From Escherichia phage vB_EcoM_Skers: DNA of 64,000 nt. The position numbers and the translations under genes were made by a program. The stretch lies in the sequence record MW748999.1; one strand, 5' to 3'. The notes below the pieces were generated by a model that was given only the letters and a program-made list of their open reading frames with translations, did not search any database and had not been told where the DNA came from. Shown here in pieces: positions 3,141-60,093 of the stretch; the first letter of the stretch is position 1, and the number at the start of each line of letters is the position of its first letter.

Positions 3141-3658
3141 TGACAGAAACTAAACCTATGTTAAAATTTGTTGTTCCTGTAAAAAAATTAGAGATAAACG
3201 GGAAACATATTAAGATCCCAAAAATGGGGATTAAGCAACATCGATTATTAAAAGATGTTCGTAGCTGTGATGAAACATTAAAGATTCTTCTTGATTCAAT
3301 CTGTCCTGGGTTAAACGCTGCCGAGTCTGAATTGGTTATGCTTAACCTTTGTGCGTTTAATGGTAAGTGTCTGGAAGAAAAAGATGGTCTTAAGCTGTCT
3401 GATGTGTATATTTGTACAGAGACCGAATTTACTTTAAATGGTAAAGTCTTTAAATTTAAAAATCCAATGTATACTTCTGACCCCATTATCGATGACGCTG
3501 ATTTCTTGAGTCATCATTATCACGATCCTAGTGTAGACTTCCATGATTTCCCAGCTTTTATTATGGATTGGGCTACAGGATTAAGAAAAACTATTGCGCT
3601 GGATACGCCGGAAGGCACTATCTATGGTGGAATTAACATATTGGATCGCCTATCATGA
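3140..3658 (+). CDS. 28: Baseplate hub distal subunit gp28
   Basis: 172 aa (T4 gp28 is 177 aa); start overlaps gp27 stop; position. Confidence 0.75.
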   Translation: MTETKPMLKFVVPVKKLEINGKHIKIPKMGIKQHRLLKDVRSCDETLKILLDSICPGLNAAESELVMLNLCAFNGKCLEEKDGLKLSDVYICTETEFTLNGKVFKFKNPMYTSDPIIDDADFLSHHYHDPSVDFHDFPAFIMDWATGLRKTIALDTPEGTIYGGINILDRLS

Positions 3659-11447: not shown

Positions 11448-11966
11448 TTAGTTATTTTTTAATTGCTCATCTTGCAATAGGGCAATCACATGCTGGCGAT
11501 GCTCTTCCGATTGAGGCACACCGAAAAAGTTTGTTTTGTAGAAATACTCTAATCGGTCTTCTCGTGTGCTCTCTTCCATCATGATCGCTGGTAGTCCGAG
11601 ATTTCGGAAACGTCGCTTTTCTGCTGGAGTAAAATCACTGTAATACAACATAGAATCATCATTACCAGCAATGCTAAACTCATCCTTCATAAAGGAGAAT
11701 ATTGCGTTTAAACGCTGTTTACCGTCCACGATTTCGATCTCATAGCGAGAGCCATCATCAATCTTAGCCATTGCGATAGCACCAACCGGAAAATCATTAA
11801 TAAGGTTTTCGATAAACATACGTTTGTTTTCTGTGTCCCATACTAAAGGACGCTGATAATCTGGGTTCATGTTGATATAGCCATCTTCTAACCATGCATC
11901 ATAAACAGAGATGACAAAGTTTTTAGTATTGGTATAGTAACGGCGTTTAGGCGTTAAACGGTTCAT
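11448..11966 (-). CDS. DUF262 (ParB-like / GmrS N-domain-like) protein
   Basis: DGKQRL (DGQQR-type) motif and PDYQRPLVW; start trimmed to ATG 11966 with SD AGGAG; last gene of five-gene operon. Confidence 0.6.
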   Translation of the reverse strand: MNRLTPKRRYYTNTKNFVISVYDAWLEDGYINMNPDYQRPLVWDTENKRMFIENLINDFPVGAIAMAKIDDGSRYEIEIVDGKQRLNAIFSFMKDEFSIAGNDDSMLYYSDFTPAEKRRFRNLGLPAIMMEESTREDRLEYFYKTNFFGVPQSEEHRQHVIALLQDEQLKNN

Positions 11967-13572: not shown

Positions 13573-13586
13573 CACTTTTTATAAAA

Positions 13587-13754
13587 TCATTTGTTAATTT
13601 CTGGTGCGTTGCTAGGATAGTAACCTTCTTTAACTCCGAGGTATTTCGCAACCATCCCTACAATCTTCTGTGCTACTACAATGTCAAATTTCAGATAATC
13701 TTCGCCGTGGGTTTCAATGATATATGCTTCACATGCTGCTTTCGTCTCGAACAT
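13587..13754 (-). CDS. Hypothetical small protein (55 aa); paralog of 16858..17025
   Basis: Start trimmed to ATG 13754 (MFETKAACEAY...); the ORF-track N-terminus runs into the promoter. Confidence 0.6.
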   Translation of the reverse strand: MFETKAACEAYIIETHGEDYLKFDIVVAQKIVGMVAKYLGVKEGYYPSNAPEINK

Positions 13755-13787
13755 TTTGATTCTCCTATATCTCGTTGGTATGTGTGT

Positions 13788-13815
13788 AGTATAGGGGATC
13801 ACCGATCCCCGTCAA
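13788..13815 (-). promoter_or_regulatory. PeSL-type early promoter cassette
   Basis: TTGACG-N16-TATACT with palindrome GGGATCggtGATCCC; almost identical to cassette at 17060..17088. Confidence 0.7.
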
Positions 13816-13829
13816 CAACTTTTTTAAAA

Positions 13830-16854: not shown

Positions 16855-16857
16855 CTA

Positions 16858-17025
16858 TTATTTGTTAATTTCCGGTGCGTTGCTCGGATAGTAACCTTCT
16901 TTAACACCCAGATATTTCGCAACCATTCCGGTGATCTTCTGTGCTACTACGATATCGAATTTCAGGTAGTCTTCACCGTGGTTTGCTACAATGTATGCTT
17001 CGCATTCTGCTTTAGTCTGGAACAT
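16858..17025 (-). CDS. Hypothetical small protein (55 aa); paralog of 13587..13754
   Basis: MFQTKAECEAYIVANHGEDYLKFDIVVAQK... near-identical to 13587..13754 product. Confidence 0.55.
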   Translation of the reverse strand: MFQTKAECEAYIVANHGEDYLKFDIVVAQKITGMVAKYLGVKEGYYPSNAPEINK

Positions 17026-17059
17026 TTTTGATTCTCCTATATCTCGTTGGTATGTGTGT

Positions 17060-17088
17060 AGTATAGGGGATCACCGATCCCCTGTCAA
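17060..17088 (-). promoter_or_regulatory. PeSL-type early promoter cassette
   Basis: TTGACA-N17-TATACT with palindromic spacer GGGGATCggtGATCCCC. Confidence 0.75.
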
Positions 17089-17096
17089 CAACTTTT

Positions 17097-17399
17097 TTAT
17101 TCTTCGTCTTTATCTTTATATGCGTATTTCATAAATTTGTCTGCTACTTCATCGGCATGTTCCGATTCTACGTCGGATTCGAGAACAATAGCAAGATCGG
17201 TTTCGTCGTTTCCGTCATACCAATGATTATGGGTATCGTTTTCTTCGATATAGAATGAGTCATTTGGAGTTGGACGACAATATACATCTAAATTCTCATC
17301 GATGTAAAAGATCCAATCTTCGTAAAGAATAACCGTATTAGCCAGATTTTTATTGCCTTCAACGAAAGGTTCAGCTACAAATAGCTTAGTTTGTTCCAT
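17097..17399 (-). CDS. HxHW-motif small protein family member (101 aa)
   Basis: Start trimmed to ATG 17399; YIDENL, THNHW. Confidence 0.55.
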   Translation of the reverse strand: MEQTKLFVAEPFVEGNKNLANTVILYEDWIFYIDENLDVYCRPTPNDSFYIEENDTHNHWYDGNDETDLAIVLESDVESEHADEVADKFMKYAYKDKDEE

Positions 17400-33776: not shown

Positions 33777-33804
33777 ATTATACACTGTTGCGTTACGCTG
33801 TCAA
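33777..33804 (-). promoter_or_regulatory. PeSL-type early promoter (no palindrome)
   Basis: TTGACA-N16-TATAAT. Confidence 0.6.
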
Positions 33805-34971
33805 CTCTTTTTCAAAAGATTTTACGATATACATGATAGTGCTCAATTCAGACGGCGCTACTGTCTCTGTCCAGCCATCCGGCATATCTTCTTTCGAGAT
33901 ATAGGAAGTTTTACCTTTCATCGCTTCCTTGATTTTGTTTTCTAATTCTAAGATCTTTTGACCATCTTGTAAAGTCAATTCATAAAAGATCTCGTGATCG
34001 AACTTTGAAACACGAGATTGGTTTCTCATGCGCTCATGTGTTTCTTTGTTTGTTATTCCAAATTTCACGCCAACAAAGGAATCATTGTTGGTTAATTTCT
34101 GTATATAAAGAGTTCCTGTCTTTAATGCCTGATAACCATGCTTAGAACACAACGGGCAGCGTGTTCCGCGATTAACAAAATTATCAATAGTTACAACCCA
34201 TTCATGGTTACGTTCGCATGTCAGAAGTATTCTTGTTAATGCACCTTTCCACTTTCCTGAAATCCCAATAAATTTTAGTCTGTTGGTTTCGCATATTTTT
34301 TCAATTTGTTTTAATCGGTCACTTTTTGTTATTGGTGCTGTTCCGCTACATTTGTGACACCGACGACCTAGTTTGAACTTATCATAACTTTGTTCGTAAA
34401 TGTGATTATTAGGACACTCAAATTTAAGTTTAGTTTTTGTTCCTTTCCATTCCCCAATTATACCCAAAAATTTATAATCTCCTTTATTTTCATTTATATA
34501 AGATAAGGAATCTTCTTTATCATACATCTTGCCACCGTTACATAAAGGACATCTTGTTTTTTGATGAATGAAATCTGTATATGTTGGTTGGTATGTGTGT
34601 CCGTTTGCACAGTTCATAATGAGTCTTGTTCTGCTATTTTTATACTCCCCACCAACAAAACCAACAAATACATCGTTTGTTTCTTGTTTTATTCTTTCTA
34701 TCACATGGTTTAGGTTTAATCTTTGAGAATCAACCACACATTTCTTACACGAAACTTTTTTCCTGATATTTGCTAGAGTTGATGTGTATTCATGCTTGTT
34801 ATTACATAATATAAGAGCTTTTGTTTTGAGACCAGACCATTCTCCAACAAACCCCATGAAAGAATAACCAACTTCCAAACATGAATTTTTTACAACATTT
34901 TCCCAATAGAAGGGAGTTTTCGTGTTTCCTTTTATTTCTATACGAATCTCATGTGCTTGACGTACTAACAT
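33793..34971 (-). CDS. Repeat protein: four zinc-ribbon-like repeats plus C-terminal GIY-YIG-like (T5orf172-type) domain
   Basis: Four ~60-aa repeats F.G..GEW.G..T...C.N.H...(x)...RC..C; C-terminal GTLYIQ...VKFGITNKETHERM...HEIFYEL...GWTE; start trimmed to ATG 34971. Confidence 0.5.
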   Translation of the reverse strand: MLVRQAHEIRIEIKGNTKTPFYWENVVKNSCLEVGYSFMGFVGEWSGLKTKALILCNNKHEYTSTLANIRKKVSCKKCVVDSQRLNLNHVIERIKQETNDVFVGFVGGEYKNSRTRLIMNCANGHTYQPTYTDFIHQKTRCPLCNGGKMYDKEDSLSYINENKGDYKFLGIIGEWKGTKTKLKFECPNNHIYEQSYDKFKLGRRCHKCSGTAPITKSDRLKQIEKICETNRLKFIGISGKWKGALTRILLTCERNHEWVVTIDNFVNRGTRCPLCSKHGYQALKTGTLYIQKLTNNDSFVGVKFGITNKETHERMRNQSRVSKFDHEIFYELTLQDGQKILELENKIKEAMKGKTSYISKEDMPDGWTETVAPSELSTIMYIVKSFEKELTA

Positions 34972-35001
34972 AATTTTATCCTCCTTTGTTTCGATGTTTG
35001 T

Positions 35002-35029
35002 ATTATACATCCTAACATCAGCATGTCAA
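35002..35029 (-). promoter_or_regulatory. PeSL-type early promoter (no palindrome)
   Basis: TTGACA-N16-TATAAT. Confidence 0.6.
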
Positions 35030-38534: not shown

Positions 38535-39482
38535 TTAGAACTCACCAATTTTCTGCAACATTTTAACTAACGCATTTGTTACAAAATAGTTATAAATCTT
38601 ACCGCGTGGTGCTGGTTTAGATTTCTCCCATGACTCCAGGATCTGATTCTGGATATTGTCTGGGATCTCGTCAAAGTCAATCAACTGACGGTTTTCATCA
38701 AATCGACGTGCTTCTTCCTCTGTCATCAAAGACTTTGGATCTTCGGCATCGAAAATTTGCTCTAACCATTTGGTTGCAATTGGTTTAGCTCGTTCTCCTT
38801 CCAGTCGTGAGATAATGAAATCACTACGGCACTTGATCGAAGCTACACCGTCTTTTGCGTCACCCTTAACACATTTTACCATAAGGTCTTTGTAAGGGCT
38901 ACCATATTTGCATTTCTTCCATGCTTTCTGTACTGGCGCCCACTGTTTCACGTTTTTGTATTTGTGCAACTGTGTGTAGTCACCATCGCCGGAGTTGATT
39001 AGCACCTGGCGACCTTCTACAGAAAACTTTTTAGTTAACACAGCGATTATATCATCCGCTTCAACTTTGTCAACCTTAATAACGTGATAAGGCATGTTCT
39101 CTTTAAACTCTTCGGTGATCTTATTGATCGCAGCAAAGATCATCTCCCAATCACGCGGATCTGCGTCTCGTTTTTCCTTACGGTTGCGTTTATAGTAAGG
39201 GGCGATATCACGTCGCCAGTAACCTTTGCTTGAATCAAAGGCAAGTACCGTAATTGGGTATTGCTCTTTGAATTTTGTCATATTATAACGCATGGTGTCA
39301 AGAATAAGATGACGGATCATGCCTTCACTAATAGGGTCTTCCGGTTTAAAGGTATGCGAGATAGTAGCAATCATAAGCTGCGACATATCAATCAAATGCA
39401 CACCTTCCGGCAGTTTATCTTCTGGAGCATCGAAGAAATCATTAAGTGTAGCGGTAGTTTTTGTAAACGGGTTATACGTCAT
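38535..39482 (-). CDS. rnh: RNase H (5'-3' exonuclease / flap endonuclease)
   Basis: YWRRD.APYYKRNR, KYPNVKQW-like, DFIISRLEGER and PRGKIYNYF match recalled T4 RNase H. Confidence 0.9.
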   Translation of the reverse strand: MTYNPFTKTTATLNDFFDAPEDKLPEGVHLIDMSQLMIATISHTFKPEDPISEGMIRHLILDTMRYNMTKFKEQYPITVLAFDSSKGYWRRDIAPYYKRNRKEKRDADPRDWEMIFAAINKITEEFKENMPYHVIKVDKVEADDIIAVLTKKFSVEGRQVLINSGDGDYTQLHKYKNVKQWAPVQKAWKKCKYGSPYKDLMVKCVKGDAKDGVASIKCRSDFIISRLEGERAKPIATKWLEQIFDAEDPKSLMTEEEARRFDENRQLIDFDEIPDNIQNQILESWEKSKPAPRGKIYNYFVTNALVKMLQKIGEF

Positions 39483-39484
39483 AA

Positions 39485-39670
39485 TTAAGTTCTCTCCACT
39501 CTCACAACAACAGACTCATCAAACGAGCTAGATACTTCACGATCATACCCGTATTTCTCCATAACTCGCAGAATTGCATTGTTTAATTCGGCACGGAAAT
39601 AATTGTAATCCTTATCTGGGATTCTGTCAACTACCCATTTTGCACCATCTGACAAATCAAATTTAACCAT
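39485..39670 (-). CDS. Hypothetical protein (61 aa)
   Basis: ORF between rnh and gene 34. Confidence 0.5.
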   Translation of the reverse strand: MVKFDLSDGAKWVVDRIPDKDYNYFRAELNNAILRVMEKYGYDREVSSSFDESVVVRVERT

Positions 39671-39708
39671 AATATATCATCCTCTTTTGTTTCTATCAAG
39701 CCTTATTT

Positions 39709-39716
39709 TATAAATA
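39709..39716 (+). promoter_or_regulatory. T4-type late promoter (TATAAATA) for gene 34
   Basis: Exact TATAAATA about 28 nt upstream of gene 34 ATG. Confidence 0.6.
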
Positions 39717-39744
39717 TGAACATACTATAAAAGGAGACCCAATA

Positions 39745-42700
39745 ATGGCAGATTTTTCTCAACATTTCAAGGCCACATTTGGCTTTGATGCTGGTAATGA
39801 AAAGGTCGTCAATGTAGCATTGGCTGATAAGAATGTCAACACCGATGCGGTCAACGTTGAATTTTTCAATTACCATAATGGTATTACTCAGTATGACACA
39901 ACTCGCGGTTATGATCAATACGGAACTACAATCTATCAAAACCGCCCGTATTATGCAAAAGAAGATATCGCAAAACCAGCAGGTGACTTTGACCCGACTA
40001 AATGGCAAGCACTGCGCACGGACCCACGTTGGGATTATGTTGCAGCAACTTCCGGCGATACTCCTTTAAAGTCCGGTGATTATATCGCAGCGGACTGTCA
40101 GTTTGCAAACTTGACATTCTCAATGCCTACTAATCCGGCAGAGGGCGACACTATAACAGTAAAAGATATCGGTGGCAAGTGCGGTGTTAATGAGTTATCG
40201 TTCCTTGCGGCTGGTCATGAGTTCTATCATAACGGTGTGGTAAACAACCGCAAATGGTATTGTACTACCCCTTATGCAATGAACTACTTCATTTTTGCTC
40301 GCAATCGCTGGCACGTTTACCAGACGGGAACGGAGCCACGCGGGGTATATGCACAGCCATCTATTGATCCGATCCAGATGCAAAACGGTGATCAGGTATT
40401 CCGCCGTAGTTCTTTGGGTAACATTGTTTTGATGCTTCCTAAGTTTGCTAATAACGGTGATATGATCCAGACTACCGATCTTGACGGATTGACTGCAACC
40501 AACCATGTTACGGTAAAAGTGCATGAAGGTGCGCAAGAACAATCGATCGGTACTTTCGGGGTAAAAGAAATTGTTGGTAAGCGTAGCGGTCATGGTGTAT
40601 TCATCTTTGACAAACCGGAAAACTTATGGCGTTTGTGGGATGGCGATCAGTCTGTTCGCTTGAATCCTATCATTAGTGATACTCGCTTATCCCCTAATAG
40701 CTATGTTGCTGTATTTGGTGATCGTGATGTTACCTTGACTTTACCGACCAATGTCGAGCCGGGTGATCGTATTCAAGTTTCTATGCAGTATATGCACGGA
40801 AACCAGACTTGCCGAATCATTACCTCAGAAGAGGATACAAAAATCCTTATGCAGAAAAACATGGTTCAGTTTCCTAAGCGTAGCGAGTACCCATTCAATG
40901 GGACCGATACATGGACGGGAGTGTCTGAATTGTCTTTCAACGCTGCAAATGATTATGTACCTTATCTGGAGTTCTCTTATTCAGAAGGTGATGATGGTAA
41001 GAAATACTGGTTGGTGGCACATGCTCACCCGATTGTAGAACGAGTAGATCCGACTCGTAAAGATCGTGTTGGTGTAATTGCACTGGCTACCCAGGATGAA
41101 ACAAACAAAAACCATGAAGATAATCCTAGCGACGAAGTTGCGGTGACTCCAAAGGTTCTGGCTAACAAAACAGCCAACGAAACTCGACGCGGTATTGCTC
41201 GCATTGCAACTCAAGCGGAAACGCATCAAGATACTGGTTCCAGCTTCCTGGATGATGTTATCGTTACACCTAAAAAGTTAAATGACTGTGTTGCTACCGA
41301 AGACCGTCGTGGTGTGATGGAAATTGCAACTCAACATGAAACAAACGAAGGTTTAGACGATACCCGCGCAATCACTCCTAAGAAGTTAGAAGAACGTCGC
41401 GCGTCCGAGGATCTTGCTGGTATCGCTGAAATTGTTCAGGTAGGCGGTAATGCTGCCGCTCTAAGGGGTGAAGCTGGTACAGGGATCTATAATATCAATG
41501 ACCATGCTAAAATTGTTACACCGCAAAACATCAACGAAGTTAAGGCGACCGAAACTTCCCGTGGTGTTGGGTATCTGGCGACGGATGAGGAAGTTCAAGG
41601 GGCGACTGAATCAACCCCACAAGATGCATTGCTTATCACTACTCGCACGTTAACCAAGCGTACTGCCACCGAATCCCGTACTGGTATCGCTGAAATTGCT
41701 ACGCAGGAAGAAACTAACTTAGGCCAAAGTGACAACCATATCATCACGCCTAAAAAGCTACATACTCGCCGCGCAACGGAAACTTTACACGGTTTAGCAG
41801 AAATTGCAACTCAGTCTGAATTTGACGCAGGTCGTGACGATGCTCGCATTTCTACCCCATTGAAGATTAAAACCTTCTTTGAGAATGCACAGCGTTTGAA
41901 AGTAGATCCGACTCAGGGGCTTAACCTTACTGGTGATTTGTGGCAAGGTATCATGATCAGCGGTCTTGATGCAACCGAAGATACAAAAGGTGTCGCGAAA
42001 GTTGCAACTACTCAGCTTACAGACGCAGGAGAAGATGACGCTACGATCATTACTCCTAAAAAGCTGCAAGGCAAAAAGGCCACCGAAGGTAAAGAAGGTA
42101 TTATCCGAGTTGGTACTCAAGACGAAACCGTAGCTGGTACTATGGACAATGTAGCAATTTCTCCGAAGAACTTCAAATATGTTGTTCAGACAGAGGATAC
42201 ATGGAAAGCAACCGAATCGCGTCGCGGATTCCTGAAAGTAGCAACACAAGAAAACTGTTTTGTTGGTGACAATCTGCAAGGTTCTACTCAAGATCTTGAT
42301 AACTATCAGCATGACGGGATTGCGGTAACTCCGAAAGGATTAAACTACGCACTTGCTAATTTCTTACCTAAGATGGCAACCGCTCAGAATAGTTTGAAAT
42401 TGGGTAACGTAGAGGCCGCTAAATGGGCGCGTAGAGACATTGACCAGACCATAGAGAGCAATTACACGTTTAATAAAAACGTTAACGTGAAGGGCGATTT
42501 AGAGTGCTTAAAATCAGGTTCCTTTGAAACTCTGTCTGTGACTAAGAACTCTACTGATGATCCGAGTAATGGTCATCTGGTGTTGGGTGAGCGTGGAGTT
42601 GACGGTCACACCGGAATTACTCTGCATGGCACAACCGCATCGGAAGGCATGGAAAACTCATGGTCTATTATCGTTGGTGGCACTGGAACATCTCAAGTTG

Positions 42701-43485
42701 TTGATAGTAATGCTATCGCTTTCGGTAAAATCAATGATGGTGGAGTCGTCGAGCATTACGCCTTTGCTATGGAACACAATGGCGACGCGACAGCATATAG
42801 AGACTTTATTGCAGGTCGTAACCTGTATGCGAAACAAGGCGGTTTATACATTGTTGATCAGTCTAATCCGGCGATGACTCGCTCAGAAGACGGTATGTTG
42901 AATATCGGGCACGGTGGAAGTGTTAACATCAAAGCAGGTTATCAGACGCTTACTACAGAGATTGCCGGACAGAAATATCAGATCGTCCACGCAGGAAACG
43001 CAGACGAAGTTCTTAATCGTCAGTTTGTTAAGAATGCTGGCGATACGATGACCGGAAAGCTGATGATGGATAATGCGTCTATTGTATCAGTTAAGCATGA
43101 AGCGATCGCTACTACTGCGCCAGCAATTGGTAACATTGGCTTCTGGAACATGCGAGTAACTACCCAAAACATCAAAGAAACCTACCCAGAAAAGAAAAAT
43201 GGTACATTGATGCAATGGGGTACTGATGAAAACGGCCTTACCCAAATCTGGTCGCCTGATGGTACTCATAAGCATTATATCCGTTCTGGTACAGATGGTC
43301 AATGGACCGCATGGGGCGAAATTTACACCAAACAGAACAAGCCTACCGCTCAGGAAATCGGGGCAGTGGTTGCCGAAGGTGGTTTGATGAACTCTATGAC
43401 GGTTCGTGATTGGATCAAAGTTGGTAATGTTAAAATCATCGCCAATAATCTGACTCGTACCGTAGACTTTATCTGGGAAGACTAA
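39745..43485 (+). CDS. 34: Long tail fibre proximal subunit gp34
   Basis: 1246 aa; N-terminus and repeated ATQ.ETN.G..D...I(T/S)PKKL units match recalled T4 gp34. Confidence 0.92.
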   Translation: MADFSQHFKATFGFDAGNEKVVNVALADKNVNTDAVNVEFFNYHNGITQYDTTRGYDQYGTTIYQNRPYYAKEDIAKPAGDFDPTKWQALRTDPRWDYVAATSGDTPLKSGDYIAADCQFANLTFSMPTNPAEGDTITVKDIGGKCGVNELSFLAAGHEFYHNGVVNNRKWYCTTPYAMNYFIFARNRWHVYQTGTEPRGVYAQPSIDPIQMQNGDQVFRRSSLGNIVLMLPKFANNGDMIQTTDLDGLTATNHVTVKVHEGAQEQSIGTFGVKEIVGKRSGHGVFIFDKPENLWRLWDGDQSVRLNPIISDTRLSPNSYVAVFGDRDVTLTLPTNVEPGDRIQVSMQYMHGNQTCRIITSEEDTKILMQKNMVQFPKRSEYPFNGTDTWTGVSELSFNAANDYVPYLEFSYSEGDDGKKYWLVAHAHPIVERVDPTRKDRVGVIALATQDETNKNHEDNPSDEVAVTPKVLANKTANETRRGIARIATQAETHQDTGSSFLDDVIVTPKKLNDCVATEDRRGVMEIATQHETNEGLDDTRAITPKKLEERRASEDLAGIAEIVQVGGNAAALRGEAGTGIYNINDHAKIVTPQNINEVKATETSRGVGYLATDEEVQGATESTPQDALLITTRTLTKRTATESRTGIAEIATQEETNLGQSDNHIITPKKLHTRRATETLHGLAEIATQSEFDAGRDDARISTPLKIKTFFENAQRLKVDPTQGLNLTGDLWQGIMISGLDATEDTKGVAKVATTQLTDAGEDDATIITPKKLQGKKATEGKEGIIRVGTQDETVAGTMDNVAISPKNFKYVVQTEDTWKATESRRGFLKVATQENCFVGDNLQGSTQDLDNYQHDGIAVTPKGLNYALANFLPKMATAQNSLKLGNVEAAKWARRDIDQTIESNYTFNKNVNVKGDLECLKSGSFETLSVTKNSTDDPSNGHLVLGERGVDGHTGITLHGTTASEGMENSWSIIVGGTGTSQVVDSNAIAFGKINDGGVVEHYAFAMEHNGDATAYRDFIAGRNLYAKQGGLYIVDQSNPAMTRSEDGMLNIGHGGSVNIKAGYQTLTTEIAGQKYQIVHAGNADEVLNRQFVKNAGDTMTGKLMMDNASIVSVKHEAIATTAPAIGNIGFWNMRVTTQNIKETYPEKKNGTLMQWGTDENGLTQIWSPDGTHKHYIRSGTDGQWTAWGEIYTKQNKPTAQEIGAVVAEGGLMNSMTVRDWIKVGNVKIIANNLTRTVDFIWED

Positions 43486-43518
43486 TTAAAGGGGGCTAAA
43501 GCCCCCTATGGGGTTATT

Positions 43519-44658
43519 ATGACACAAGAGATAGAATTACGCAATACTGGAATTAAGTTTGCGCATTTCGACGAAGACTCCGCGACATTTACAAGCATTT
43601 CAGAAAACAACTCTGTGATGTATAAGCTGGAAGTGCGCGGATCTAATGCAGATTCTACCAAACCAGCAAGGATTAGATTTAATGGAGCGGAGATCGTTGG
43701 TACTGGCTATGAAAATGGCCTAAATTTTAAAGTTCTTACTCCAACTGGACAACTACACGAAGAAAAGGTATTCTATGGTCGCGGTGCTGTTTTGGCAATG
43801 CGTGATTATCTTTCTTTGCTGAAAGGTGACTATATCATTGCGATGGCAACGCATGGAGAATTGTTTGCAGATCCGATAAGTGATGTTGTATTTTCTAAGA
43901 TGGGATCTGTATCATTCCCGAATCACATTTTGTTACAGCAAATGCCTCGTGTATCCTATGCAGCAATTTATTCTACTAAAATGGGTAAAATTGTGTGTGA
44001 AGGGATGCAAGCAACGAACGGGGAAGGTCAAGATTCGTCTATACAGATCGAGAAAGTTTATGATACTATAGACGATCTTGCAATAACAGGAACACCACAA
44101 CGATTTTTAGATTATCCGGTTGAGTATGTTAGCGAAGATGCCGAACATTTCGAGCTAATACAATGGCCTCATGATGAGATCAGCGCACCACTTGAATATT
44201 TTAACATAAAGGCAGGTGACAAACTATCAATATCCTTTGAATTGTTCCGTGATAGTGCCGCAGCCGCAGCCAACGTAACAGCGCGTTTCTATCACAACTA
44301 CTTCACTGATGGACAATATCAAACTGGCGTTCGTTATAATGCCAGCCAGAAAGATCAATGGGAAAAGTTTGAAGCCGTCTATACCGTACCGGAAGGAGTT
44401 GATAGTGTTACCACTGGTTGTATCAGATATCCAACCAACTCAAATGAAGGTATTGTTAAAATTAGAAACATACTAATAACGCCGATCAGTGGAGTCGTCA
44501 AAACTACTGGTCCTACTTCATTTGGTGTTAATGGTGTTAGAACAACTCATATTCAGGATAACGGTGATTTTACTAACCCTGTAATGAGTCTTCTTAAACT
44601 ACCAAGAGACAATAAACATATCACATCCAACAACTTTAAAGAGTTTGATGTTGATTAA
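43519..44658 (+). CDS. 35: Long tail fibre hinge protein gp35
   Basis: 379 aa (T4 gp35 is 372 aa); position between 34 and 36. Confidence 0.75.
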   Translation: MTQEIELRNTGIKFAHFDEDSATFTSISENNSVMYKLEVRGSNADSTKPARIRFNGAEIVGTGYENGLNFKVLTPTGQLHEEKVFYGRGAVLAMRDYLSLLKGDYIIAMATHGELFADPISDVVFSKMGSVSFPNHILLQQMPRVSYAAIYSTKMGKIVCEGMQATNGEGQDSSIQIEKVYDTIDDLAITGTPQRFLDYPVEYVSEDAEHFELIQWPHDEISAPLEYFNIKAGDKLSISFELFRDSAAAAANVTARFYHNYFTDGQYQTGVRYNASQKDQWEKFEAVYTVPEGVDSVTTGCIRYPTNSNEGIVKIRNILITPISGVVKTTGPTSFGVNGVRTTHIQDNGDFTNPVMSLLKLPRDNKHITSNNFKEFDVD

Positions 44659-44668
44659 CATTTTTAAC

Positions 44669-44699
44669 AAGCCGATCCTCGTGGTCGGCTTTATTTTTA
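44669..44699 (+). terminator. Intrinsic terminator after gene 35
   Basis: AAGCCGATCCtcgtGGTCGGCTT followed by TATTTTTAT. Confidence 0.7.
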
Positions 44700-44819
44700 T
44701 ACAGTTGGTTAAAACATAACCAAAACGAAGAAAGATCTTTAGAATAATAGAAAATTTGTTTCGGTTAAAAAGTAGTCAGTGCCTCCGGCACGTCGCAAAG
44801 CGATATTTTGTTAACATTC

Positions 44820-44827
44820 TATAAATA
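44820..44827 (+). promoter_or_regulatory. T4-type late promoter (TATAAATA) for gene 36
   Basis: Exact TATAAATA about 33 nt upstream of gene 36 ATG. Confidence 0.6.
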
Positions 44828-44860
44828 CTCGGAACTATAACTAATTTTTGAGGTTACTTT

Positions 44861-46351
44861 ATGGCAGATTTGAAACATGGATCTACTGTAGGCGGATCTC
44901 CCATTTGGACGCAAGGAAACTTGACGATCCAGCCAGCGGGTGATCAGCTTTTCTACAAAGGTCATAAAATCTATACCGCTTTTGATAAACCTTCGGCTGC
45001 CGATTTTGATGCTGTTAGTGCATCCGAAGGTGGTACATTTCAGAAACTGGTCCATTTTGAGGAAGGTTTAAGCGTAGGTAGCGCATCCGGTGGAGAAACC
45101 AAAAAGAACGGGATCTTTAAAGGAAATAGTGATGCGGCTAACTTTGATGGTGTAAGTTGGGGTTTGCATTCGTGGAAATCTATTGGTTTTGTTAATGCTC
45201 GTGATGATGTTATCATGGCTTATATTGACACTACCACAGGTGATTTTAAAACTAAAGGGACTATCGAAGGGACAACCATTAAAGACACAGGTCAACGCGT
45301 CTATAGCCCTGTTAATAAACCAACGAATAATGATTTAGATTTGGTGTCTCGTCGCGGTGATACCCTCACAGGAACATATAATTTAAACACTGTCACTGTT
45401 AAACTATCGGTTGATTCTAAATTAATTGCAAGGGAACGTGATTTAATTAATTTTGATGCGACTAAGATCTATTATGGTAACGTTCTTGATACGTTGGTCT
45501 TCCGAAGTAAAGATGAGCCTACCATTTTTGTTAATGGCAGAGAAGGTCGTTTTTATCACACCAACAATAAACCAACTAAAGCCGATGTTGGGCTAGGCAA
45601 TGTCACCAATGATGCACAGGTTAAACGTGCTGGTGATATTATGGAAGGTAACTTGCAAGCGCCTAGAATGTTGGCGACAAACGATCCTGCTGGTCCTAAT
45701 GAATTGGTTCGTTTGAGCTACTTTGAGAGAAAATCAATGGTAGCAAATCCAACCATCATTGGAAACGTTGATTGGAACACTCTTATTAATCGCGGTATCT
45801 ATCGTGTGGAAAATGCTGGGTCAGGTACTAATAAACCGTCTGATAGCTATTATAACGGCGTTTTGATGGTATATCGCCCAGAAGATGCGGTCGGTACTCG
45901 TCGAATTGTTCAGGTGTATTATCCTGAATCTATTGACCATCCGATGTGCTGGCGTTCGTGTTCTAATGAATCATGGACTGCATGGAACTATGTAGATCAC
46001 CGTAAATTGGCTGATATTCGCTATGTTAACGTCACTGGCGATACCATGACAGGACCGTTAACTGTTCCGGCTGCAAACGGTGTTCATACCGCAGAAGCTA
46101 ACTATAATGGTGATAATTGCTACGCTGGACTTAATAGCTTAAATGGTACAGCAATGATTTATCGTGTTAGCGATATTAAAGCGCACGAGAAACTAGGAAT
46201 CACACATGATTCTAAAATTATTTTCGTTAAATCTCGTGACAATACTCAGGACACCGATACCTTTGAATTATACCACGAAGGACATAAACCAACTCCTGAT
46301 GAGGTTGGCGCGGTTCCGCTCAATGCGGTAATTGATTTTGGTACTTTCTAA
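44861..46351 (+). CDS. 36: Long tail fibre distal connector gp36 (enlarged)
   Basis: N-terminus MADLKHGSTVGGSPIWTQGN...PAGD...YKGHKIY matches recalled T4 gp36; 496 aa versus 221 aa in T4. Confidence 0.8.
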   Translation: MADLKHGSTVGGSPIWTQGNLTIQPAGDQLFYKGHKIYTAFDKPSAADFDAVSASEGGTFQKLVHFEEGLSVGSASGGETKKNGIFKGNSDAANFDGVSWGLHSWKSIGFVNARDDVIMAYIDTTTGDFKTKGTIEGTTIKDTGQRVYSPVNKPTNNDLDLVSRRGDTLTGTYNLNTVTVKLSVDSKLIARERDLINFDATKIYYGNVLDTLVFRSKDEPTIFVNGREGRFYHTNNKPTKADVGLGNVTNDAQVKRAGDIMEGNLQAPRMLATNDPAGPNELVRLSYFERKSMVANPTIIGNVDWNTLINRGIYRVENAGSGTNKPSDSYYNGVLMVYRPEDAVGTRRIVQVYYPESIDHPMCWRSCSNESWTAWNYVDHRKLADIRYVNVTGDTMTGPLTVPAANGVHTAEANYNGDNCYAGLNSLNGTAMIYRVSDIKAHEKLGITHDSKIIFVKSRDNTQDTDTFELYHEGHKPTPDEVGAVPLNAVIDFGTF

Positions 46352-46356
46352 TATTA

Positions 46357-46378
46357 GCGGGGATTTCCCCCGCTTTTC
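46357..46378 (+). terminator. Hairpin terminator/attenuator after gene 36
   Basis: AGCGGGGatttcCCCCGCT followed by TTTT. Confidence 0.6.
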
Positions 46379-46419
46379 TAAATAATATTATTCTAATAAC
46401 CGTTTAAGGATTTTATAAA

Positions 46420-49400
46420 ATGGCAGATTTAAACAGAATCCAGTTTAAACGCACTAGCGCAGCCGGACGTAAACCGGATGCTGGTACGATGAATCCGGGA
46501 GAGTTGGCAATTAACTTAGCAGACCAATATCTGCTTACAAAAAATGATGGTGGGCAAATTGTTAATTTAAGTTGCCCGCCAGTTTATGACAAGAGCGTAG
46601 ATCGGAAGAGCACACCGTCTGAACTCCAGTCACCGGCTATGATCTCGTTGACCGCCGTGGTCTACACGGCCCTGAACACTCTTTCCTACACGACGCTCTT
46701 CCGATCTGCAGATTTAAACAGAATCCAGTTTAAACGCACTAGCGCAGCCGGACGTAAACCGGATGCTGGTACGATGAATCCGGGAGAGTTGGCAATTAAC
46801 TTAGCAGACCAATATCTGCTTACAAAAAATGATGGTGGGCAAATTGTTAATTTAAGTTGCCCGCCAGTTTATGACAAGAGCGTTAATGTAAAAGGTCGTG
46901 TGGTTGCAGATGACCTTATGTGGAGTAATACCGCAAACTATTTCGATGACCCAACCGCACGGAATCTTGATAAATTCGGTGCATTTCGTACTAATGATAT
47001 GGATGGTCATCTAGCATTGGCTTTGCATATTCCTCATCCTAGCGGTATAAACCATGCTCGTGGGTTGGATTTTACTTATGGTTCTAACGTTGTTCCTACT
47101 GTAAAAACCTATGGTTATAACGCTGATGGTGCATTGGCATATTCATATCGCATGTATCACGAAGGTGATAAGCCTAGTCCGTCAGAATTAAATGTATACA
47201 GCAAACAAGAAGTAGATCGGATGTTCCAGAAGACCATCAACTTTGGTGTAGAAACTGGATGGTTTAAAATTGCTACAGCATTTATTCCGCAAAATGATGG
47301 ACGTAGCTTGAAAATTAGATTGGTTGGTGGAAATGGGTGGAACGTAGGCCAAACGGGACAATGTAATATTATTGAACTTGTTATAAGGACTAGCAACGGT
47401 TCCCCTAAAGGAATTAACTTTGTTGCATATCATCATGTTTCTGGTTACGAAAATCAATTTTGTGCCATTAATACAGGTGATGACACTTATGATATCTATG
47501 CATATTACTACGAATTTACTAATATGGTATTGGCTGAATATCAAGCGTCCAGCGATGTTAATTTAACTGTATTTGATCGACCTGAATATGTAGGCGAAAA
47601 ACCTGTAGCTGATCATATCTATGATGCATATACAATACGCTCCTTTAACAGTTTCAGTAACCGTGGAACATTAAATTTTGCTGGCAACCATCAAGGCCAA
47701 TATGACATTGAGCATATGAACGAACAACCGACAAATGCTAAAAAGATGTTGCGTCGGTTTCGAAGCTCTGCCAGCGCGACAATCTGGCATGAAACCGTTG
47801 ATGACCAGAATTATCGTCTTGCCGCTGGAAGTACAGACTCAAGTCAACAATTATTGTTGTCTACTGGGACTGGTTTGCATATTCGTAGATTGACCATCGA
47901 TGGTGGCTTAGGTTCCGGTTCTAATGCTGGTATTGATATTCGTCGAGGACCAAACGAATCAAGCCATTTTAATTTTATGGATTATCGCACTGGTCAAGAT
48001 GTTCGTAATGGTTGGTTTGGTTTTGGTGATTTGACGACCAAAGATTTTATTTGGTGGAACGATAACGGTCAAAACTCGATAAACTTGATCGAAAACGGTG
48101 AATTACATATTACTGGTGGTAAAGGCCAGAAAATTGTAATGAATAGCGAAGTTGCATTATCTGAAAATGCTCGTTTGGCTGTTAAAGGTGGTAATTATGG
48201 TTTGTTGTTCCGTAATGATGGTGTTAGTTTCCATATACTGACTACTAATTTAAAGGATTCTTTTGGAAATTGGAATAATCGTAGACCATTTAGTTATGAT
48301 TTTGCCGAAGGTGGATTGGATCTAGGTGGTACTGAAACTGCTCGTTGTTTGCATCTGGGGATCGATGGTAGTACCCGCATCGAAGATAACTTAGTTTTCC
48401 GATCTGGGTCGCGTCAATCAATGGACTATATTGAAATGATCCATTGGGGTAACAGTAATACAGGACGCAACAACGTTTTGAGTATGAAAGACTCGAAAGG
48501 ATTCTTGGCTGAATTTGAGCGCACCGGAACCAATAGCATTAAAACTAGATTCTTTGGTGAAACATTCACTGATGGTACATTATACCTAAATCAGATGAAT
48601 AATAGCTCTGAACGATTCTCTATCAATAATTGGGGAAATTCAGAAGTTGGTCGCGCGGCAGTCTTAGAAGTTGGTGATTCTAAAGGTTATCACTTTTATG
48701 CTGAACGCAGGACTGATAATAGTTCTTTGTTCTCTGTTGGTGGTGCTTTGTTTGTGCAGGGACCTTCCGGGATTATTATCAAAAACTCTGCTGGTGCTCG
48801 CCATGTTTGGTTTAAAGATGACGGTGATAATGAAAAGGCTGTTATTTGGGCGACCGATGAAGGTATATTACATCTACGAAATAATCATGATGGTGCATTT
48901 AGTCATCACTTCCAGGGCGCAATGATTAAACTGCAAGGGCGTGTTCCTTATGATGCAGCAAAGGGAATTGTTCGTGGTGAAGTTTCTGGTGGTGCATATG
49001 TTGCATGGAGAGACCGCCCTGCTGGTTTGTTAGTTGACTGCCAGCAAAGTGTTGATAGTGCTCATGCTGTTTGGAAAGCGGTTGATTGGGGGCGTCAATA
49101 TATCGCTGCTATGGACGTTCACTGTCCTGGTGATGGTAATAATACCGCAGCCGCTGTTCTTCATGTTCAGGCTGCTGATTATCAATTCCATGCAAGCGGA
49201 GAATTTCATGCCAGTGGCAACGGAAACTTTAACGATGTGTATATTCGTTCTGACCGTCGCCTTAAAGACAATATAGAAGATTATACTGGAAATGCGTTAA
49301 GTTTGATTGGTAAACTGAAAGTGAAAACTTACGATAAAGTTAAATCTCTTAAGGACCGTGAAATTATCGGTCACGAGATCGGCATTATCGCACAGGATTT

Positions 49401-49602
49401 ACAAGAAATATTACCGGAAGCTGTAAAATCTTCAAAAATTGGCAATCTTGATAATCCAGATGAAATTCTGACAATTTCTAACTCTGCCGTGAATGCTCTT
49501 TTAATTAAGGCTATTCAGGAAATGAGTGAAGAAATTAAAGAATTGAAAACACCTCTCTTTACTAAAATTGCTCGCAAAATTAGTAAATATTTTAAATTCT
49601 AA
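46420..49602 (+). CDS. 37: Long tail fibre distal subunit gp37 with C-terminal intramolecular chaperone domain; reading frame includes a 285-bp probable assembly artefact
   Basis: N-terminus MADLNRIQFKRTSAAGRKP...GELAINL matches gp37; C-terminal SDRRLKDNIEDY chaperone-type motif; codons 60-154 derive from adapter plus duplication. Confidence 0.85.
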   Translation: MADLNRIQFKRTSAAGRKPDAGTMNPGELAINLADQYLLTKNDGGQIVNLSCPPVYDKSVDRKSTPSELQSPAMISLTAVVYTALNTLSYTTLFRSADLNRIQFKRTSAAGRKPDAGTMNPGELAINLADQYLLTKNDGGQIVNLSCPPVYDKSVNVKGRVVADDLMWSNTANYFDDPTARNLDKFGAFRTNDMDGHLALALHIPHPSGINHARGLDFTYGSNVVPTVKTYGYNADGALAYSYRMYHEGDKPSPSELNVYSKQEVDRMFQKTINFGVETGWFKIATAFIPQNDGRSLKIRLVGGNGWNVGQTGQCNIIELVIRTSNGSPKGINFVAYHHVSGYENQFCAINTGDDTYDIYAYYYEFTNMVLAEYQASSDVNLTVFDRPEYVGEKPVADHIYDAYTIRSFNSFSNRGTLNFAGNHQGQYDIEHMNEQPTNAKKMLRRFRSSASATIWHETVDDQNYRLAAGSTDSSQQLLLSTGTGLHIRRLTIDGGLGSGSNAGIDIRRGPNESSHFNFMDYRTGQDVRNGWFGFGDLTTKDFIWWNDNGQNSINLIENGELHITGGKGQKIVMNSEVALSENARLAVKGGNYGLLFRNDGVSFHILTTNLKDSFGNWNNRRPFSYDFAEGGLDLGGTETARCLHLGIDGSTRIEDNLVFRSGSRQSMDYIEMIHWGNSNTGRNNVLSMKDSKGFLAEFERTGTNSIKTRFFGETFTDGTLYLNQMNNSSERFSINNWGNSEVGRAAVLEVGDSKGYHFYAERRTDNSSLFSVGGALFVQGPSGIIIKNSAGARHVWFKDDGDNEKAVIWATDEGILHLRNNHDGAFSHHFQGAMIKLQGRVPYDAAKGIVRGEVSGGAYVAWRDRPAGLLVDCQQSVDSAHAVWKAVDWGRQYIAAMDVHCPGDGNNTAAAVLHVQAADYQFHASGEFHASGNGNFNDVYIRSDRRLKDNIEDYTGNALSLIGKLKVKTYDKVKSLKDREIIGHEIGIIAQDLQEILPEAVKSSKIGNLDNPDEILTISNSAVNALLIKAIQEMSEEIKELKTPLFTKIARKISKYFKF
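46423..46598 (+). repeat. Direct repeat copy 1 (176 bp) flanking adapter-derived insert
   Basis: Identical to 46708..46883. Confidence 0.9.
46599..46707. other. Illumina adapter-derived sequence (sequencing/assembly artefact)
   Basis: Contains AGATCGGAAGAGCACAC(C)GTCTGAACTCCAGTCAC and ACACTCTTTCC(-)TACACGACGCTCTTCCGATCT, near-exact TruSeq adapter sequences. Confidence 0.9.
46708..46883 (+). repeat. Direct repeat copy 2 (176 bp)
   Basis: Identical to 46423..46598; offset 285 bp keeps gp37 frame. Confidence 0.9.
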
Positions 49603-49606
49603 CAAC

Positions 49607-49626
49607 AAGGGGGCGTTGCCCCCTTT
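49607..49626 (+). terminator. Hairpin (weak terminator/attenuator) between genes 37 and 38
   Basis: AAGGGGGcgttgCCCCCTT followed by a short T-run. Confidence 0.4.
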
Positions 49627-49638
49627 GGAGTATAAATT

Positions 49639-50418
49639 ATGGCAGTAGTTGGTGTTCCTGGTTGGATTGGAAGTTCAGCCGCAAATGAAACAGGACAACG
49701 TTGGATGAGTCAAGCGGCTGGACAATTAAGATTGGGTGTTCCCTGCTGGATGAGTCAATTTGCAGGTCGCTCGCGAGAAATTATTCATACTGTAGGAGCA
49801 AACCACAATTTTAATGGCCAGTGGTTCCGTGATAGATGCTTTGAAGCTGGCGGTGCACCTATTGTATTCAATATTGTCGGTGATATCGTTTCTTATTCTA
49901 AAGATGTACCACTTTTCTTTATGTATGGAGATACACCTAATGAATATGTGGTTCTTAATATTCATGGCGGAGTTCATATGTGGGGACGAGGTGGTAACGG
50001 TACTGTAAACGGAAACCCGGGCACAAATGGCGGCGATGTAATCCAAAATGATATCGGCGGAAGACTTCGTATTTGGAACTATGGCGTTATTGCATCAGGC
50101 GGCGGCGGTGGTGGTGCAGTGTCATTACAGAATAGCTGGGCGCCAAATGCTACAGCAGGTGGCGGTGGTGGTAGACCATTTGGCATCGGCGGAGGCGGCG
50201 TTAATTGGCCGGGTGGTAATGCTAGTTATGACGCACCGGGCGGAGCCGGTTACACTTCCCAATTCGGCGGAGGCAATGGCGGTGATGCTGGAGGTTGGGG
50301 TGGAGATGGATGGGGTAATCACTTATCTAGATCCGGCGGTGGTGCTCCAGGTAGAGCGGTATTCGGTTCTTCACCATCATGGGGTGCTGTAGGGACAATT
50401 TATGGATCTTACATTTAA
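49639..50418 (+). CDS. 38: Tail fibre adhesin gp38 (T2-type, glycine-rich motifs)
   Basis: N-terminus [28 protein letters not shown] matches T2-type gp38 as recalled; C-terminal half has multiple poly-Gly runs (GGGGGG) separating short variable segments. Confidence 0.85.
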
Positions 50419-59962: not shown

Positions 59963-60093
59963 TATTTTGCTTCGACAACCTTGCGGATTGTGCGGTCTGA
60001 TACATTATAGATTCGTGCCAGTTCGCCTTTAGTCAAGCCGCGAGCGTATTGTTTACGGATGGTTTCTTTCTGGATAGCGGTCAGTTTAGTCAT
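59963..60093 (-). CDS. Small HTH protein (43 aa), not in ORF track
   Basis: MTKLTAIQKETIRKQYARGLTKGELARIYNVSDRTIRKV; resembles rIIB N-terminal HTH. Confidence 0.35.

Follow-up and report, generated by a model that had tools for sequence, protein, structure and literature searches.

The window analysed here, the whole 64,000-nt stretch taken from the Escherichia phage vB_EcoM_Skers record (MW748999.1), derives from a Krischvirus (RB49-like, Straboviridae) and is colinear with positions 42328 to 105808 of phage kvi (MN850615). Identity to kvi is ~79–97% per segment, with the minimum in the gp37 tip and gp38. The tail-fibre module has the gp34-35-36-37-38 order, and the features discussed below are collected in Table 1. 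The large ORF between gene 36 and gene 38 is identified as gene 37 by this position and by its synteny with kvi, KFS-EC and the near-identical phage L006 (introduced below), the corresponding proteins of relatives being annotated 'long tail fiber protein distal subunit'. The protein as deposited matches the Pfam families Gp34_trimer (residues 526–626) and Peptidase_S74 (residues 944–1003).

Table 1. Features of the gene 36–38 region of vB_EcoM_Skers; positions are those of the window.
Feature	Position	Strand	Description
Gene 36 (long tail fibre hinge/distal connector)	44861..46351	+	496 aa; Pfam Phage_T4_gp36; gp36 in relatives; genuine upstream neighbour
Gene 37 as deposited (long tail fibre distal subunit)	46420..49602	+	1060-aa ORF including the artefact
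Copy 1 of the 176-nt segment	46423..46598	+	gp37 codons 2–59 plus two bases of codon 60
P7-side adapter (read-1 read-through)	46599..46648	+	A + GATCGGAAGAGCACAC[+C]GTCTGAACTCCAGTCAC + CGGCTATG + ATCTCGT, truncated before ATGCCGTCTTCTGCTTG
P5-side adapter (reverse complement of read-2 read-through)	46649..46707	+	degraded ...GACCACCGAGA + TCTACAC + i5 + stem
Copy 2 of the 176-nt segment	46708..46883	+	runs on into authentic gp37 sequence
Gene 38 (tail fibre adhesin)	49639..50418	+	259 aa; Pfam GP38 (E 2e-80), Gp38_N; receptor-recognition protein in kvi; genuine downstream neighbour

Gene 37 as deposited opens with a direct repeat of 176 nt, the two copies of which are identical at 176/176 positions with a start-to-start offset of 285 nt. 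Copy 1 starts directly 3' of the ATG (46420–46422) and ends in ...GCGT, followed by A-GATCGG (adapter A overhang); CCGATC-T (adapter T overhang) lies directly 5' of copy 2. Both boundaries are A/T junctions of the kind that adapter ligation leaves in TruSeq libraries and, since the edges of the repeat coincide with them, the repeated unit is exactly one 176-bp library insert. The ORF is open through all 1060 codons and encodes the N-terminus twice, its translation including ...YDKSV DRKSTPSELQSPAMISLTAVVYTALNTLSYTTLFRS ADLNRIQFKR...; the 36 residues of translated adapter between the two N-terminus copies read VDRKSTPSELQSPAMISLTAVVYTALNTLSYTTLFRS, the leading V coming from a hybrid codon. The insertion in gene 37 amounts to 285 nt, or 95 codons. 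Deletion of 46599–46883 leaves a gene of 2898 nt (965 aa and a stop codon), in which ...GACAAGAGCGT is joined directly to TAATGTAAAAGG...; the true start of the gene reads ...TATAAAATG followed by GCAGATTT.... Exactly this 1060-aa sequence stands in the public databases under accession QXN69117.1, 'putative tail fiber protein [Escherichia phage vB_EcoM_Skers]'.

The spacer between the copies (46599–46707) is adapter sequence throughout. All 109 nt align to the TruSeq dual-index P7 (D709) and P5 (D504) oligonucleotides with 7 edits, and the best two-piece model consists of a 49-nt prefix of P7 (1 edit) and a 59-nt suffix of P5 (6 edits). A published oligo table has this adapter layout and lists both indexes (D709 = CGGCTATG, D504 = GGCTCTGA). 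On the P7 side, 46599–46633 reads AGATCGGAAGAGCACAC+C+GTCTGAACTCCAGTCAC, that is the read-1 read-through sequence AGATCGGAAGAGCACACGTCTGAACTCCAGTCAC adjoining genomic sequence, matched at 34/34 nt with one inserted C. It is followed at 46634–46641 by CGGCTATG, an exact match to the i7 index D709 (chance 12/65536), listed in this strand orientation in the Illumina adapter document, and at 46642–46648 by ATCTCGT; with these seven bases the P7 flow-cell sequence begins and breaks off, and they are all that remains of the ATCTCGTATGCCGTCTTCTGCTTG that follows a valid 8-nt i7 index. On the P5 side, 46649–46660 is TGACCGCCGTGG, a degraded version of the CGACCACCGAGA of the P5 flow-cell sequence, and is succeeded by TCTACAC (46661–46667), by GGCCCTGA (46668–46675), an i5 index with 1 mismatch to D504 (GGCTCTGA), and by the P5 stem ACACTCTTTCC(-C)TACACGACGCTCTTCCGATCT (46676–46707), in which one C is missing. 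This is the P5 layout ...GATCTACAC[i5]ACACTCTTTCCCTACACGACGCTCTTCCGATCT adjoining genomic sequence, and its final 21 nt are exact.

The edits cluster in the middle of the spacer, the place expected for the 3' ends of the two reads, and the P5 (read-2) side is the worse of the two (6 edits vs 1). Illumina errors accumulate toward the 3' ends of reads, with read 2 the more affected, and the pattern of edits in the 109 nt would fit such a decay of quality at both 3' ends. Two of the edits, C to CC and CCC to CC, are indels of the homopolymer type; Illumina base calling rarely produces these, and we have no explanation for them. The garbled stretch 46649–46660 was also considered as a read-merger hybrid of the P7 tail and the P5 head; this was rejected, as the implied 27-nt overlap matches at 8/27 positions (hand comparison) and the 'P7-like' bases are within chance. 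The original prediction, made from the letters alone, had placed near-exact TruSeq adapter at 46599..46707 between two identical 176-bp copies and had described a 285-bp (95-codon) insertion that leaves the ORF open and adds a nonsense segment and a repeated N-terminus. All of this holds, the repeat to the base and the insertion in the 1060-aa ORF, and both indexes and the partial P7 and P5 flow-cell sequences are recognized in addition.

Chance resemblance does not account for the match. A 32-mer from the P7 side and a 21-mer from the P5 side of the spacer each occur once in the window at up to 3 mismatches, against 0.00 expected (100 shuffles), and the GC content of the 109 nt is 56% vs 40% for the window. 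No further adapter remnants were found in the 64 kb; the sole other adapter 12-mer, at 11500, extends to 9/33 matches, and about 0.6 such 12-mers are expected in the window by chance. When the junction region alone (46560–46750) is compared, it matches unrelated phage records, in the adapter part only and mostly no more than ~100 nt from the end of the record (for example 45769–45830 of 45880, 3556–3604 of 3605, 60017–60066 of 60066 and 1–46). The hosts of these phages include Salmonella, Enterococcus, Klebsiella, Staphylococcus, Caulobacter, Paenibacillus, Nostoc, Mycobacterium and Bacillus; E. coli phage MS2 is also among the matching records.

The frame stays open by coincidence. The frame of the adapter that is used has no stop codon, both other frames have stops, and the joint chance of an insertion that is a multiple of 3 and a stop-free adapter frame is about 0.10 (shuffles). 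With a length divisible by 3 and no in-frame stop in the adapter, the insertion led the gene caller to a 1060-aa gp37; and because the fragment begins at codon 2, copy 2 has no ATG of its own, so that the first ATG and hence the long ORF is used. With the frame kept open, annotation, frameshift and pseudogene checks miss the artefact.

Comparison with relatives locates the anomaly precisely. In eight GenBank Krischvirus records covering at least 80% of the query 45900–47500 (best match in the phage collection 96.4%), the corresponding span is ~1316 nt vs 1601 nt in the query, 285 fewer. The 176-nt segment is present in a single copy in kvi, FL20 and KFS-EC. In the comparison of the whole window with kvi, positions 88495–88664 of kvi are aligned twice, at window 46592 and 46708, and form the only kvi segment so used; over the 64 kb no other doubly used or broken segment was seen beyond ordinary accessory-gene indels. 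At the protein level, the full-length members of the 90%-identity cluster of QXN69117.1 are 956–966 aa long, and six of six aligned cluster homologues (85–96% identical) lack exactly residues 2–96.

The closest comparison is provided by L006 (GCA_052848075.1, a 164,380-bp contig) and L007 (Logan SRR35595271), both of which encode an identical gp36 followed by a 965-aa gp37. These two show no difference from each other in the 7578 nt that they share, possibly come from one sample and were counted as one independent witness. Once 46599–46883 is deleted, the region 46000–47400 is identical to both (1116/1116). Leaving the block aside, the window from 38861 to 48618 has only two mismatches to L006, at 42675 and 47955 (99.99% identity over 38861–46598; 1 mismatch over 46708–48618). 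The adapter sequence is therefore absent from relatives and from independent assemblies alike, and the earlier estimate of about 965 aa for the true gp37 is borne out by the length range of the cluster, by the length of the protein in L006 and L007 and by base identity after the deletion. The chimeric junction 32-mer is absent from IMG/VR, an exact-product look-up for gp37 and gp38 found no contig, and a literature search found no mention of vB_EcoM_Skers. The possibility that the junction is a seam between the contigs of two phages was rejected, given the two mismatches to L006 over 38861–48618 and a divergence that starts 1.9 kb downstream.

We conclude, with a probability of about 0.97, that the 285-nt block is an assembly artefact that does not belong to the true phage genome and stems from a single TruSeq dual-index fragment whose insert measured 176 bp. 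For this speak the adapter identity of the spacer, the repeat edges that fall on A/T junctions, the lack of the block in relatives and, once it is deleted, the agreement with a near-identical phage. The block is one library molecule in circularly permuted order. The insert was shorter than the read length, with read 1 running into the P7-side adapter and read 2 into the P5-side adapter, and the adapters were left untrimmed. What stands at 46423–46883 is both reads of this one short fragment set end to end, read 2 as its reverse complement: [insert + 50 nt P7 adapter] abutting [59 nt P5 adapter + insert], i.e. 176 + 109 + 176 = 461 nt in place of the genomic 176.

Two routes to this arrangement are envisaged. 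Somewhat over half of the probability of an artefact is assigned to a route through contig ends, in which adapter-tailed reads formed the ends of one or two contigs that were later joined or rotated untrimmed. Such reads could not be extended and would terminate contigs; if the T4-like, circularly permuted genome came out of the assembly in linear form, the contig would start with P5 adapter and insert and end with insert and P7 adapter, and its rotation or concatenation would yield the block. A smaller, still sizeable share goes to a single passage of the assembler through an internal graph loop or through a read pair that had been joined in error. Since most assemblers do not join read tails end to end, a manual or scripted joining or circularization step is assumed. 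The deposited record is 154,769 bp long vs 163–168 kb in relatives and 164,380 bp for the L006 contig, ~10 kb shorter, which hints at a pieced-together assembly; the record may lack ~10 kb of sequence or have other assembly problems. The original prediction had spoken of a chimeric-read or contig-end artefact: adapter throughout the spacer and the absence of the block from relatives support the artefact, and the exact software step is left between the two routes.

A chimera formed in the laboratory is very unlikely. A head-to-tail PCR or ligation concatemer of the library (P5-insert-P7-P5-insert-P7), sequenced and assembled faithfully, would give the observed order insert-P7-P5-insert; it would, however, be expected to carry the complete P7 tail ATCTCGTATGCCGTCTTCTGCTTG and the complete P5 head AATGATACGGCGACCACCGAGATCTACAC, whereas P7 is short of 17 nt here and P5 of ~11 nt, and what is left of the P5 head is garbled. 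A truncated and garbled P7–P5 junction better fits two truncated, low-quality read ends. Moreover, a structure of 461 nt or more is too long for a single Illumina read, which could not have crossed it.

A genuine tandem duplication of the 5' end of gene 37 around a 109-bp foreign spacer, giving a real 1060-aa fibre with an extended N-terminus, is improbable in the extreme, even though the ORF remains open and mosaicism and frequent recombination are usual in tail-fibre genes (divergence from L006 starts at 48619). The spacer is synthetic oligonucleotide throughout, with an exact D709 and a near-exact D504 index, the ends of the repeat coincide with A/T ligation overhangs, and the same spacer sequence is found at the ends of unrelated phage records. 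The junction is not genomic, the duplication is absent from every related genome and protein examined, and the open frame, a coincidence of about 0.10, is no evidence of selection. In the long tail fibre of T4, the N-terminus of gp37 attaches to gp36, and a prefix of 95 residues of nonsense and repeat at this attachment site should do harm. A further reading is that the DNA that was sequenced did contain the block, for instance because amplified library had been carried into the phage or host culture and had recombined into gene 37 via the 176-bp homology to give a viable phage whose gp37 bears a 95-residue N-terminal extension; nothing supports this reading, and we give it next to no weight.

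The assembly artefact can be set beside several known situations. It resembles the adapter contamination of deposited assemblies (the class addressed by NCBI VecScreen and FCS-adaptor) in that untrimmed synthetic sequence stands in a public GenBank record. This is a well-known class of error, and the Skers case is unusual only in its form: most adapter contamination lies at contig ends, whereas this block is internal, within a CDS and in frame, contains both adapters with their indexes and is accompanied by a false duplication of 176 nt, the length of one insert. When a circular genome is assembled as a linear contig, an untrimmed overlap of the ends produces a tandem duplication once these are joined or rotated. 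The direct repeat in Skers, at what were probably contig ends, would be comparable with such an overlap, as left at the ends of a circular or circularly permuted genome; unlike a plain overlap, it does not have the length of a k-mer but that of one library insert, is bounded by ligation junctions and has adapter in between. With the block removed, the gene is an ordinary T4-type gp37 of a Krischvirus (RB49-like) in its usual synteny, and the corrected gene differs from those of other Krischviruses by normal variation of the receptor-binding tip only.

The block has no biological significance, and the practical point is one of data hygiene. QXN69117.1 is 95 residues too long and is already in NCBI nr and in protein clusters; analyses of tail-fibre N-termini, structure predictions, host-range models and training sets that use it would inherit synthetic sequence. 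The record is corrected by deletion of 285 nt (46599–46883), which restores the 965-aa gp37.

The same pieces of TruSeq adapter were also noted in many other deposited phage genomes, for example KY442063.1/NC_047813.1 (18492–18539), PQ462667.1 (7547–7605), PV611058.1 (295320–295355), KY555145.1 (150496–150542) and PP438413.1 (16725–16773). In Staphylococcus phage Andhra, the terminal adapter match sits under an annotated 'repeat_region'. Internal matches occur in HMD-P3, WPEC3, Ccr29 and Nsp-JY21, those of HMD-P3 and WPEC3 lying under annotated genes ('endonuclease' and 'Sir2'). The matches in these genomes may be further embedded-adapter artefacts. For Oxford Nanopore (ONT) adapters and barcodes, a published survey gives 5,782 GenBank accessions with such fragments (PMC13182109).

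Several further features of the tail-fibre module were observed. The Peptidase_S74 intramolecular-chaperone domain (window 49249–49428) ends gp37 although a separate gene for the gp38 adhesin follows. In T2-type fibres, gp37 is processed at its C-terminus before gp38 binds, and the combination of Peptidase_S74 with a separate gp38 would fit such a processing step here. The distal tip of gp37 together with gp38 (48619–50116) has about 125 mismatches to L006 vs 2 in the preceding 9.5 kb; a sharp mosaic boundary of the kind seen at 48619 is typical of an exchanged host-range cassette. Just 3' of the gp36 stop codon, a GC-rich hairpin followed by four Ts (46351–46379; GCGGGGATTTCCCCCGCTTTT) resembles an intrinsic terminator; it was not called by the terminator scanner, the T run being too short, and its loop is slightly different in relatives. 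A scan of 46200–47000 for sigma-70 promoters and terminators gave nothing informative, the two minus-strand 'promoters' being the duplicated segment counted twice.

Elsewhere in the window, two segments of ~240 nt (13586–13822 and 16857–17099) cross-match each other's kvi positions at 85–87% identity, which indicates a small paralogous family of short ORFs within the cluster of hypothetical genes. An ORF of 405 aa on the minus strand (33793–35010), with the frd-side genes on one side and gene 32 (ssDNA-binding protein) on the other, contains four CapR homology domains and a treble-clef zinc-finger match (Pfam PF21817, E 3e-29; PF14311). At this locus kvi has ~320 nt vs ~1160 nt in the window, and the CapR ORF is therefore a window-specific accessory gene.
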